Below are positions 1-6,000 of a DNA stretch of 10,739 nucleotides, in pieces; position 1 is the first letter of the stretch; the number at the start of each line of letters is the position of its first letter. The position numbers were made by a program. Origin of the DNA: a virus (Duplodnaviria; Heunggongvirae; Uroviricota; Caudoviricetes); IMG/VR virus record IMGVR_UViG_2703719365_000002; one strand, written 5' to 3'.

Positions 1-3000
1 GGCGAGCGGTGAATTCCGGCGACAACTGAGCGACGACAATAATGCTGTCTCGCTTACCTTGTTCGCCTTCGAATATATACACGCTTGTGAATTTGTTAGG
101 GCTAATTGTTTGTTTATTTTCAACTTTTTGCATTGAAGGAAGTTGAATCACCCCACGCTTTGCCAGACGTTCTATTGATATTCTGACATTACCGTGTTGG
201 CTTCCCACCAACTCAGCGATTTCAATGCTTGTCATTTTGATGGCATTGCTATTTATCAGCTCATTCATTGTCATGTCCTCTCACATTGAAAATTCAGCAA
301 TAAAAAACCCAGCCGAAGCTGGGTTTGTTAAGTTGTCAATTGTCAGTAGCGATGCAGTGAAGGCGGCAACTCTTTGTTCTTAAGCCTTTCCCATGCCAGA
401 AGGTTCGTCGGCCCGTCAGGCTCATAAATATCTATATCCCGCGTGTGATTAATTAAAACGCCCCTCGCCCTCCCGATGATATACGAGAACTCATAGCCGT
501 AGTCGTGGCATATGCCGGAATAGCCAGACTGAATCAGTTTTAATGCGGGATACAACTCACGGAACAATGCCTGTGAGCGGTTGGCATAATCCCACAGCCA
601 TACAAGGCTGTCTGTTTCTTTTGCGGAAAGCCCGTTGAGCTTCTTCTCTTGTTTGCCAGTATTTTTCTCGCACTGGCTGAAATAGCAGTCTTCCAGTTTT
701 TCGAACACTTCCCACGCCCGATCGGTTTCGAGCATTTTTGCGTGACGGGCTGCGCCGCGTTCTGTCCAGAGGATGAGGGAGCGGGCTTTCGGGGAAATTT
801 GTAACCCTCTTAAAGATGGTTGCAAATTTTGTGAGTTACTTAAAGTAACCCGCAAATTTTGTGAGTAGTTTAAAGCTACCCGCAATTCTTTAAGGTCATT
901 ACCAACAACTTTGAAAAAGTGTTTCCCTTCAACGAAGCGTACTTTGTTCTCATGATGATTCTGGCGAATACGCACCGGCTCAGTGCCGTAAAGCTGCGCC
1001 AAAAGTTCGGTGGTAATAACAGGAATCTGGTTATGGGTGATCGGGGAGAGAGTTTCAACAGAAATTTTAGTTGTCATAATGACGCCCTCTGGTGGTTTCT
1101 TAATAACTCACCACCGACGACGCCAATCGTCTGGTGGTGAACTGTGCAGGGTTGGCGTAACCGGGAAACCGACCGGCGCGGATCTCTCCGCCCCCACACA
1201 GCCCACCATAATTCAGATGTGCGCGTGCATACGACAATAAAAAACACGCTCGCGGCGTGTATCTGTCGCGGTCTCTATCCAGGACGCCAATCCCGACGCC
1301 AGATTTTGCTGGCGTTTGAGGAATATAGCCCCGAATAAATCATCACGTCAATCACCTTGTTTTCCTCGCACGATGTCTTAGCCACCGGATATCCCACAGG
1401 TGAGCCGTGTAATTGAAGGTTTTTACGTCAGATTCTTTTGGGATTGGCTTGCGTTTATTTCTGGAGCGTTTCGTTGGAAGGTATTTGCAGTTTTCGCAGA
1501 TGATGTCGGTGATACTTCGTCGCTGTCGCCTCATGCAGCCCTCCTGACGCCCAGCCCGATCGCCATCAATGCCGCTTTGGATACGGTAGTAAACATCCGT
1601 CGAGGACTGATGAACGGTCGCCAAATCAGCAACATTGAGCCTTTGCTGTTTCCCTTCTTCTCCAGCCCTGTCGATGGTTCGATAAAATTAATCCGTCCAT
1701 CAGTGATGATGCGAACTTCGTCAACACTCTCCAGAGCCTTGCTGAACCATCCGACAGACATATCCTCTGGCACAAGCATCACTACCGTCTGTCGCTGTTG
1801 TATGCACTGCTCAGCGGCTTTTTCCACCCACGGCCTGATATTGCTGTACGGTGGGTTATTCCAGATTGCACCGTGGCTTATCCACTCAGAATTTAGCGCG
1901 TCGTCAGCCTCAGTTAGCCAGTGAGCGCACAGAGCGTTTTTGTCGCTCGCAGCTGAATCCAGCCAGAATCCAAACTCAATATCCAGCGCATCAAAAAGCC
2001 AGAGCGGCGTTTGCCAGCAGTCCTTGTCGTGTGCTGGCGTATTTGATTTGATAGTCATGCAGCCTTCCCTTTTCGTTGTGACCATTCATACTCTCGCCGG
2101 GAGTCATCACTCCACCGCACGTTGCGCTCTGAGCCGAACCAGAACATGATTTCGATAAGCTCAGTCATGCTGGCCTTTCGCATTTTGCTGGTACGCACGC
2201 CAAGCATGACAACGCCACCGTCGATACCAGGCGCACTTCTTTGCTCCAGTTTTTTGGTCTTAAGCCACAGGGCAGTGAACAGGTCTTTCCAGTCTTCCGG
2301 CGCCAGCCGTTGACCATGCCATAGCACCTGACGCGAAACATCGTTCAGCATCGGCCACATGCGGTCATTCTGCGCTTTGCTGCGCTTGGGTTCTTTAACG
2401 TGGACTTCGTGGGGTGACTTGTCGTCGATGGGTAGTGAGAGAATGGCGTCTATGGCGTTATTTCTGATTGCTTCGTTGCGAAGCAGAAAGGTTTGCTTCA
2501 TCTCCTGCTCTCCGGTTCCATTTTTCAGTAGCCGCAGCAACTGATGGTGCCCATGCCACCCTGGCTTCACAGAGGTCACATTCTGCATAGCCCCACACAT
2601 CAATATTTATTCCGGCCTCAACCCACAGACGAGCATTACCGCCGCAAAACGGACATTCTTTTAGCTTTGGCTGGGTTAATGATAGGTCGCTCATGCTCAC
2701 TCCTTCACTTAAAATCCAGACTCCGGATAATTCTGTTGCGCTGAAACTCATTGTTGAGTTTGAACAACCGTCGAAGAACACGGTCACGCGGATAGCGTCG
2801 TGCGGCAGGTGAATGCTCATACAACTCATCAAGCGGCAAACTGGACGATGAACGATACCGATACCAACGCACCAACTCTTCACGAAAATTAGCCCTGACA
2901 AGCTCAGCTATCGTACTCATTTCTTAAAACCTCCTCAAACGCATTCTGACGCATTTTTCATTCTCGCTGCTTATCGGTATACCTTGCACGTGCTTACCTC

Positions 3001-6000
3001 ACCACAGAGCGATTGTGATGCCTTAAAAGCGATTTATTGAAGTGATATTTGCTTAATCGAAATTCTTTTCTTTGATTCCTGCGGCCCTGATGGCTTTCAT
3101 TACTGCAATTACCGTTTTGTCACGCCCATCCTCATAACCCATCGCATAAGCACCTTCTTCACCATCTTTCCAAAGGTCGTCATTCGATTCGGGCCAGTCG
3201 ATATCCAGTTCAATAGCTGCTCGCGATGCCTGCCATAAAGCCCACCAATCATTTAAGGAGTGACGAATATCCATGCTTGAAAATGCGAAGTACCTATCAC
3301 CATTTCTTGCCTCGGTTATCATCTCGAATGGTAATCTCAATTTTTTGGCAACGTATTCCTCAAACTGCTTTCTTGATTCGTCCATATCAATCACCGTTAG
3401 TCGTTTCACTCACGAATCTGACAAAACCAGCCATGTTAATTTGCATGAGTTTTTTCAACACTTTGTCTCGTCGGCTACGTTTTGGTTTTGGCCTGTGATT
3501 GAATCTTTCACAAACTGGAAGGCTCGATGATTTCCAGTACCTATTACGCCTTGCTCCATCTTCAGCCATATCGGCATGAATAAGGTCTGCGAGTGTGCTC
3601 ATATTCACCTCTTCCAGTTACATTGGTTTTGTAATGTTGCTAGTCATCGTTCGAATAACAAAATGCGTAAGTAACCTTGCTTTCCACATGTAAATCTATT
3701 CAAGGCGAGATAAATCTACGAATACCGGACCTTTGTAATCTGGTCTTGATGCCCTTATGTATGAGCTAATAGTTTGTGCATCTTGCTTGTCCAGATTCAT
3801 GACTTCCCTCTCCCCCAAATAAAAAGGCCTGCGATTACCAGCAGGCCTTTATCTTTTTTTAACACGCTTTCGAGTCCTTTTATATTTTTCCTTAAGATAT
3901 TCCGCAAGTTTATCCTCATCATTATTAAATTGAGATAAAAGCTCATGCTCGCAATTAAGTGCTTTACTCGCATAAGTTCCATATAGTTTCTTTCTTGCTA
4001 GTGCTGCTATGAATGCTGCATCTTCTTTGCTATCGAAATACCCTAACGATATTGTCTTATTTTTATAACCAACATAAGACTTCCACCTGCCAGTTGGCTT
4101 ATACCAAGACACTCCAATTGCACCGGATGTGTTTAATCTATTCCCTACAATGTTTCTTGCATTCTGCTCTTCTGTTGCCAGTCTTAGGTTTGAAATCCTA
4201 TTATCAAGTCTGTTCCCATTTACATGATCAATAAACTTAGGAGGCCATTTTTTGTATACATAGAACCAAGCAAGTCTATGCGCCTTATACAAAACATTAT
4301 TTATACTAATGCATATATAACCACCACTAACACCTCCAGCAATACTACCTTTTACTCTTACTACTGAATTTGTTTTTAGCCATTTAAATATTCCTGTTTC
4401 TGAGTCATATGATAATGTTGACAGAAGCTCATCGTGATCAATTAGTTTTTTTATTCGCATAAAGAATATACTTAATAATATATACAGTAAGAACCATTAG
4501 TAACGATAACCCTGCTATTAGCTCAGTGATGTAGATGGTCATACGTCAGCCCCTTGTGCATATCGTCTGCCACGCGCAGCAGGTGCATTTGATGCTGTGC
4601 AAATCTGTCTGGCTTCATCCTGGTCACATGCAACAAAGTGTCCGTTACAGAACCGCTGGTAAACTGTACCAAGCGAGCCAAAACGGTTTTTCGTCACGAT
4701 GATTTCAGCAAATGGCGCGGCGCTACTGTTCTCATCATATACCGCTTCCCGATAGAGCATGATGATTGAGTCTGCGTCCTGTTCAATGCTTCCTGAATCA
4801 CGCAAATCTGCGTTTGTCGGGCGTTTGTTTGGTCGCTTCTCAACATCGCGCGAAAGCTGACTCAGGGAGATAACCGGTGTTTTCAGGTCTTTCGCCATCG
4901 CCTTCAGGCTTCCGGAGATGTGAGCAATTGCGAGGTCGTTGCGGTCTGCTTTCGGCTTCTCAATCAGGCCAAGATAATCCGCCATGATGAGTGACAGGTT
5001 TGGATTTTCCTGCTTATGCCGTTCTGCGATTGAGCGTATTTCTTCGACCGATAACCGCGAAGCATCGACTACCCATACATCCAAATCTGCAAGCTGACTC
5101 ATGCCGTTAGCAACACGTGCCCAGCCCTCGTCATCCATCGATGCAGGATTTCGCAGTACGCTAACCGACATCCTCCCGGCGTTGGCAATGCTTCGCTCTG
5201 CAATCTGCAATGCGCTCATTTCCATTGAGAAAATCAATACCCCGCGCCGGACGTCAGAACCAGGAATAACGCGGCTTGCCACACCTTCGGCAATCTTCAG
5301 CGCCAGTTCGGTTTTCCCCATACCAGGACGAGCGGCGATAATCACCAGGTCTTCTGCGTTCATCCCTCCAGTGATAGCGTCAAGCTCTTCGATTCCGGTC
5401 TTCAGGGTATCTGACTCTTCTCCGTTCCTCAGACGCCTGTCAAGCGTGTCAGTGTAGTCAGTGATATTTCCCCTAACCGTACAGGTTTAACCTCGTCACG
5501 GGGCTTTCTGATGGCTGAAAGACGCTTTACAAGTTCATCCATCGCCTGACTCGATGCGTCGATGGTTCCGCTTTGGATTGGTTCACGCATTTCATCCATG
5601 ATTTCCAGCACCAGACGGCGGTGATAGTTATCCGCGACCATTCCGGCATATCCCTTCAGGTTTGCGGCACTCGGGCAGTTTTTGCTGGTCATCAGGATTG
5701 ACGTGAAATGCTCCTCTCCGCACGCCTCGGCAACCATCAGCGCATCGATTAGGTTTCTGTTTCTCGCCTGCTTGCGAATAACCTCGAAGGCTTTCCGGTA
5801 GAGCGGAATTGAAAACGCTTCCGGCTCCAGCGTTGCCAGAACGTCACTGGCGGTTGGAGTTAATCCACCAATCAGCAGGCCACCGATAACGCTAGCTTCG
5901 ATATCCTGTCTCATGCAATCCCCCTGTCTGCAAACTTCCCTTCCCGAACTCCCGTTAACGAATCTTCCCTCAGCAGGTAATCAAAATCTGCCGTCCAGCC

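Follow-up and report, generated by a model that had tools for sequence, protein, structure and literature searches.

Two small genes on the minus strand of a viral DNA stretch raise the question of whether one repeated leader gene has been paired with varying cargo. The stretch, IMG/VR record IMGVR_UViG_2703719365_000002, is 10,739 nt long and is referred to here, at its full length, as the window. Both genes encode strongly basic proteins of 71 amino acids (aa), and each lies directly upstream of a different gene: copy a (3387..3602) precedes a gene for a 110-aa protein (3053..3385), and copy b (2705..2920) precedes a gene for a 78-aa Lar-family restriction-alleviation protein (2458..2694). 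The initial annotation, whose four open reading frames (ORFs) are all present on the minus strand at these positions, took the repeated gene as the leader of a modular two-gene arrangement. We consider it probable that each of the 71-aa genes is an accessory cassette in its own right within a mosaic nin region, and not a leader for the gene downstream of it. Judged from their sequences, they appear to have been joined by recombination between lambdoid lineages rather than by local duplication.

The two 71-aa products share 25 of 56 aligned residues (45% identity, 68% positives, E = 2e-16), and the homology proposed initially thus survives alignment statistics. Both match PF23975 (DUF7301) and phrog_1785 over their full length, with PF23975 scores of 108.6 bits for copy a (residues 1–64 of the 65-position model) and 91.4 bits for copy b, against a curated gathering threshold of 27 bits. 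The motifs MST.A.L, SSSLP and RD+VL are common to both, and isoelectric points (pI) of 10.4 for copy a and 10.8 for copy b bear out the basic character noted earlier; the family median is 10.8. In a per-column analysis of a 44-sequence alignment, the conserved positions are L7, S26-L28-P29, P38 and R45-D46-x-V-L, and both copies fit this pattern. Sharing the size, the single-domain layout and the SSSLP and RRDRVL motifs of PF23975/PHROG 1785, and differing from it in no respect, the window copies are ordinary members of a narrow, uncharacterised family of enterobacterial phages. A DUF7301 profile search of 1.84 billion representative proteins returned 52 clusters at 50% identity, whose members span 27–111 aa, the ones under ~60 aa being apparently partial, and showed no known extra domain. 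The family occurs in Shiga toxin (Stx) phages, in P22-like Salmonella phages (ST64T Orf-69, BTP1_046) and in Klebsiella and Cronobacter phages.

For the comparisons below, genes encoding products at least 85% identical to copy a are called a-type, those at 58–85% identity to copy a are called P22-like, and the relatives of copy b are called b-type. Polymorphisms fall mostly at third codon positions of the DUF7301 frame, and the ratio of nonsynonymous to synonymous substitution rates (dN/dS) takes values of about 0.10–0.14 for a-type and P22-like genes and of about 0.3 for the b-type, where substitutions are few. Therefore, the DUF7301 genes are really coding and are under purifying selection.

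The window is a lambdoid prophage resembling Stx2 phage 1717. Its minus-strand gene order runs from cro, cII, an O-like replication gene, a DnaB-type helicase gene and an HNH/AP2 endonuclease gene (3849–4460), through copy a, the 110-aa gene, a 132-nt spacer and copy b, to Lar, NinB, Dam, NinE and Ant. Region 2400–3700 matches Stx2-converting phage 1717 at 100% identity, as it does 52 complete E. coli genomes, most of them O157:H7. Across 5426 complete E. coli genomes, a near-identical copy a gene is present in 95 and the copy b gene in 543; a- and b-type genes occur together in 52, and each is mostly found solo.

Gene neighbourhoods were compared across 263 loci from IMG/VR, GenBank phages, one RefSeq E. 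coli chromosome and public assemblies, which gave 121 non-redundant DUF7301 contexts, those of diverged members being obtained by exact-protein look-ups. In all 37 a-type contexts, the gene downstream begins at +1 nt, and its product starts with MDESRK and ends in ..GIKVKE. Of these genes, 35 are plain members of PF26207 (Phage_phiTE_015); the remaining two are a PF26207-Lar fusion and a gene whose coiled-coil-like centre the PF26207 profile did not recognise. Similarly, all 24 P22-like genes overlap a PF26207-family gene through ATGA. Downstream of the b-type genes (n = 51) lie Lar (42 contexts), a 63-aa membrane protein (5), a 62-aa protein (3) or NinB (1), while diverged DUF7301 genes are followed by unrelated small genes, by a reverse-strand DUF4145 gene, by a gene 3′ of terminase, or by nothing before NinB. 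The expectation that the 71-aa family consistently precedes variable cargo thus holds only in part: b-type genes mostly precede Lar, a-type and P22-like genes have constant PF26207 neighbours, and the partners also occur without DUF7301. One diverged prophage (locus L170, 3001–4065) shows the order DnaB, DUF7301 and reverse-strand DUF4145 gene, an arrangement suggestive of a moron-type insertion at this hotspot.

Viewed from PF26207, 148 non-redundant contexts have DUF7301 upstream in 58 cases, about 123 nt downstream in 33, on both sides in two, which is the window's arrangement, and on neither side in 55, where other small genes precede PF26207. In addition, PF26207 without DUF7301 has other Lar alleles immediately behind it. 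The members of an obligate two-gene module should rarely occur without each other, and this is not what was found: given the 55 of 148 PF26207 contexts that lack DUF7301, and the varied or absent neighbours of DUF7301, the two genes do not form an obligate pair.

The 110-aa protein is acidic and Trp-rich, as initially described (pI 4.75, 5 Trp), and matches phrog_343 with E = 1e-29. A precomputed PF26207 match exists for 120 of the 120 homologues listed, including ones 96% identical to it; the 110-aa protein itself had no match in the Pfam copy searched, which seems to be without that model. Although the initial annotation recognised neither family, the 71-aa proteins are catalogued as DUF7301 and homologues of the 110-aa protein as PF26207. 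PF26207 genes are mosaics with conserved termini and a central anchor, WQASRAAIE (window 3053–3385, loci L088–L255), at which 8 N-module and 9 C-module types are joined in 20 combinations among 51 distinct proteins. Next to the nearly invariant a-type DUF7301, the PF26207 proteins are highly variable, with lengths of 62–152 aa. Identity of the window to the common Stx phages (2851, 933W, Sakai) begins at about 3237, corresponding to codon ~50 of the 110-aa gene, at this same anchor. On this sequence comparison, the window gene is a recombinant of an N-module from the a-type lineage and the C-module of common Stx phages.

As initially reported, the two downstream genes begin within 1–10 nt of the 71-aa genes. 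Copy a and the 110-aa gene are separated by 1 nt (TGA-T-ATG), the Shine-Dalgarno sequence of the latter (GGTGAT) lying inside the copy a coding sequence, while copy b and Lar are separated by a 10-nt spacer carrying AGGAG. These tight junctions are not special, because five of the nine operon junctions measure 10 nt or less in the annotation by the Prokaryotic Genome Annotation Pipeline (PGAP), and because the packing of nin genes is described as exceptionally tight, ATGA overlaps included (PMC8022706). The copy b–Lar boundary coincides with a conserved 19-nt sequence, GTGAAGGAGTGAGCATGAG (2690..2708, minus strand), which comprises the copy b stop codon, a Shine-Dalgarno sequence and the lar start codon. 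It also terminates canonical PF26207 genes (..IRAAGIKVKE, then stop) via a different TGA in another frame, and across phages it precedes at least 10 different genes, including several Lar alleles and the 63-aa membrane protein. Since GTGAAGGAGTGAGCATGAG is found at the end of two gene types and ahead of at least 10 different genes, the variable cargo belongs to the junction and not to DUF7301. Furthermore, the final ~36 nt of copy b are similar to a PF26207 3′ end with a 1-nt indel, its last ~8 codons resembling such an end partly in another frame.

The gene 3′ of copy b (minus strand) was rightly called Lar-like. Its product scores 61.4 bits against TIGR03655 (cut-off 39.6) and 37.8 bits against PF14354 (cut-off 28.6), matches phrog_599 and carries the zinc-ribbon motifs CPFCG and CDLC. 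However, it lies far under the cut-off of the RalR type I toxin equivalog NF007260 (28.7 against 113 bits), and DUF7301 has no similarity to Lar or Ral.

The two genes sit in a hypervariable block of the early-right operon, between the replication genes/ninA and ninB. One putative parental lineage carries ninA, orf60, DUF7301a and PF26207; the other, with the common Stx arrangement, carries PF26207, the 132-nt spacer, DUF7301b, Lar and NinB. A crossover at the central PF26207 anchor WQASRAAIE (window ~3237), with orf60, DUF7301a and the 5′ half of a PF26207 gene coming from the a-type side, would have put both DUF7301 genes in one phage and would explain the 52 genomes with the full two-copy arrangement. 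Differences among the downstream genes would stem from gene-sized module exchange at short conserved junctions, namely the PF26207 5′ end (MDESRKQFE) and the linker GTGAAGGAGTGAGCATGAG. The b-type order of DUF7301 followed by Lar was probably derived from the order DUF7301, PF26207, linker and Lar; the deletion responsible would have left copy b with a tail derived from PF26207.

Such a history agrees with what has been described for lambdoid phages, in which relaxed homologous recombination generates mosaics at flanks that are short or diverged (PMC2327257, PMC3945230) and in which the nin genes are non-essential, each phage carrying about 10 from a pool of 30–50 (PMC5630979). The locus displays the position, co-directional tight packing, patchy presence and boundaries at gene ends of a nin-region mosaic cassette. 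Like the lambda/P22 nin genes (ninA–ninH, ninX/Y/Z), DUF7301 genes are small, lie in the early-right operon between the replication genes and ninB/Q, have junctions that are tight or overlap, are patchily distributed and are exchanged as gene-sized units. They are, however, none of the named ones, and occupy a slot just after ninA in some Stx, P22-like, Klebsiella and Cronobacter phages. The 19-nt linker, together with the PF26207 termini and central anchor, flanks phage-variable segments in the manner of lambdoid boundary sequences (PMC2327257, PMC3945230). In contrast to these, one linker is here read in two frames, as the end of PF26207 and as the end of DUF7301b, and one anchor is intragenic and yields combinatorial protein variants. 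Thus, the modularity behind the idea of a leader with varying cargo is real, and a-type and P22-like genes always precede PF26207; yet this modularity is recombinational, the cargo in those clades is a single family, and cargo is tied to the junction. As against the suggestion of something other than random nin-region filler, the arrangement is best read as ordinary nin-region mosaicism of an uncharacterised family.

Several points weigh against regarding the genes as independent cassettes. DUF7301 and PF26207 adjoin in about three quarters of the contexts sampled, at least four diverged DUF7301 clades among them, and the two proteins have opposite net charges (+6.7 and −7.4), which suits a physical pair no less than conserved synteny. 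Close relatives from E. coli and Salmonella make up most of the sample, whose contexts are therefore not independent. For the b-type tail, the proposed deletion is based on similarity over ~36 nt. A functional two-protein module would have DUF7301 as the constant basic subunit (chaperone, inhibitor or adaptor) of a complex with the acidic PF26207 protein, with the b-type re-used alongside Lar. We regard this as unlikely. It would agree with the 61 of 61 a-type and P22-like contexts that have PF26207 at +1 nt or in ATGA overlap, with the presence of PF26207 adjacent or one gene away in the diverged clades SPN9CC and L171/L172, with the complementary charges and with the location of the PF26207 Shine-Dalgarno sequence inside the DUF7301a coding sequence. 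However, the 55 PF26207 contexts without DUF7301 speak against it, as do the b-type genes found without PF26207 and the diverged members with unrelated neighbours; moreover, a nearly invariant DUF7301a stands beside many PF26207 variants with no visible co-variation, and conserved synteny is general in lambdoid mosaics (PMC2327257). A more specific form of this idea, which seems to us somewhat less likely again, would treat DUF7301 and PF26207 as a conserved basic/acidic unit. PF26207, whose two variable modules around a conserved centre and termini loosely recall specificity subunits such as HsdS, would provide a specificity that changes, and DUF7301 would be its constant partner, perhaps in counter-defence beside Lar and Dam, the b-type being a derivative that has lost PF26207.

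A role as an anti-restriction helper, with DUF7301b working together with Lar and DUF7301 in general belonging to an anti-restriction island with Lar and Dam, appears decidedly improbable. Lar does lie downstream in 42 of 51 b-type contexts, and Lar, the Dam methyltransferase and the HNH endonuclease are found within ~2 kb. Nevertheless, other Lar alleles come directly after PF26207, without DUF7301, and in nine contexts the same b-type allele precedes the 63-aa membrane protein, the 62-aa protein or NinB; in addition, PADLOC and the other family searches gave no match, and no experimental report was found in the literature. A recent tandem duplication within the phage, followed by divergence, was rejected as having a negligible chance of being correct: the copies are 466 nt apart on the same strand, but their products are only 45% identical, near-identical relatives of each copy occur solo in many other phages and genomes, and a mosaic breakpoint lies between them.

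Each DUF7301 product would most likely act alone, independently of the gene downstream. The AlphaFold2 model of copy a, with a predicted local distance difference test (pLDDT) score of 85, contains helices at residues 3–25, 30–35 and 45–69 and forms a helical hairpin with a short middle helix, in line with which the DUF7301 products are predicted to be strongly basic cytoplasmic helical hairpins of ~8 kDa. Fold searches with DUF7301 returned generic helical hairpins only, profile searches of PDB sequences gave no matches for DUF7301 or PF26207, and NCBIfam and PADLOC had no match for DUF7301 or the 110-aa protein. A literature search on DUF7301, PF23975, PF26207, the PHROG identifiers and the old locus names found nothing relevant. 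The genes would be transcribed with the operon from the early-right promoter by read-through of a hairpin at 3823–3850, and their positions are consistent with translational coupling to their neighbours, as in the rest of the nin region. As for the partner of such a basic protein, an acidic one seems the most likely, be it nucleic acid or a protein of host or phage, and a dispensable role in host takeover or counter-defence may be envisaged.

The hairpin just mentioned (3823..3850, minus strand) resembles an intrinsic terminator, with a 10-bp stem containing 6 GC pairs and a T tract, and lies immediately upstream of the accessory gene block. It is a 3′ remnant of a ninA-like ORF: in other phages, the hairpin sequence is inside an intact ninA-like ORF directly 5′ of DUF7301, and in the window the HNH/AP2 homing-endonuclease gene stands in place of the 5′ part of this ORF, of which the 3′ end is kept. 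In phage 1717, ISEc8 is located between the helicase and HNH genes; the window is without ISEc8. Between the hairpin and copy a lies a truncated copy (3696..3800, minus strand; intact form to 3618) of a 60-aa gene (MNLDEQDAQTISSYIRAS...) that normally precedes a-type DUF7301. A nonsense change from GAG to TAG at codon 35, relative to loci L106 and L112, leaves 34 codons, and the same change is present in phage 1717.

The non-coding spacer of 132 nt upstream of copy b (2921..3052, minus strand) is 94–100% identical in about 170 (171) Stx-type phage records, always at the same position, and occurs in no other phage group. It showed no Rfam match and no promoter or terminator signal above background, and the Rfam and promoter/terminator scans found nothing anywhere inside 2458–3602. 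The left homology of the b-type cassette starts ~17 nt before the ATG, at the Shine-Dalgarno sequence, regardless of whether a ninA-like ORF or the 132-nt spacer is upstream.

In E. coli strain 7784, the RefSeq PGAP annotation makes the same calls as those used here, with two genes labelled "DUF7301 family protein", a hypothetical protein and Lar; the family is thus in the catalogues, and annotation of the identical genes already exists. In contrast, the records of phages 1717, 2851 and 933W (L0092) contain a long "Lar-like" ORF with an out-of-frame start inside DUF7301b (window 2458–2901; L001 4818–5243; L002 4355–4780; L262 1677–2036), and DUF7301b is left unannotated. The separate calls for DUF7301b and Lar are favoured because of the conservation data, that is, the third-position polymorphism in the DUF7301 frame.

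Two further features of the window lie outside this block. The DnaB-type helicase gene (4539–5914, minus strand) has a 1-nt deletion near 5465 relative to phage 2851, the sole difference over 1377 nt, so that the gene is broken into two ORFs; in E. coli 7784, this gene carries the RefSeq label "frameshifted". The prophage may be replication-defective, or the frameshift may be an assembly error. Just upstream of the Ant antirepressor gene, at 1130–1328 (minus strand), Rfam matches to isrK (74.7 bits) and C4 antisense RNA (66.7 bits) both exceed the gathering score, and a c4-a1b1 target element is near threshold (45.9 against 46.7 bits), which suggests an immI-like RNA control module of the P1/P7 type.

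The two-copy arrangement is a textbook outcome of lambdoid mosaicism and matters little as it stands. Even so, the RefSeq/GenBank phage records that hide DUF7301b need correction. Moreover, because a small number of short junctions structure the ninA–ninB block, the cassettes that it contains can readily be listed. DUF7301 and PF26207, which are under selection and abundant among Shiga-toxin and P22-like phages, are reasonable candidates in small-protein screens for host takeover or counter-defence.

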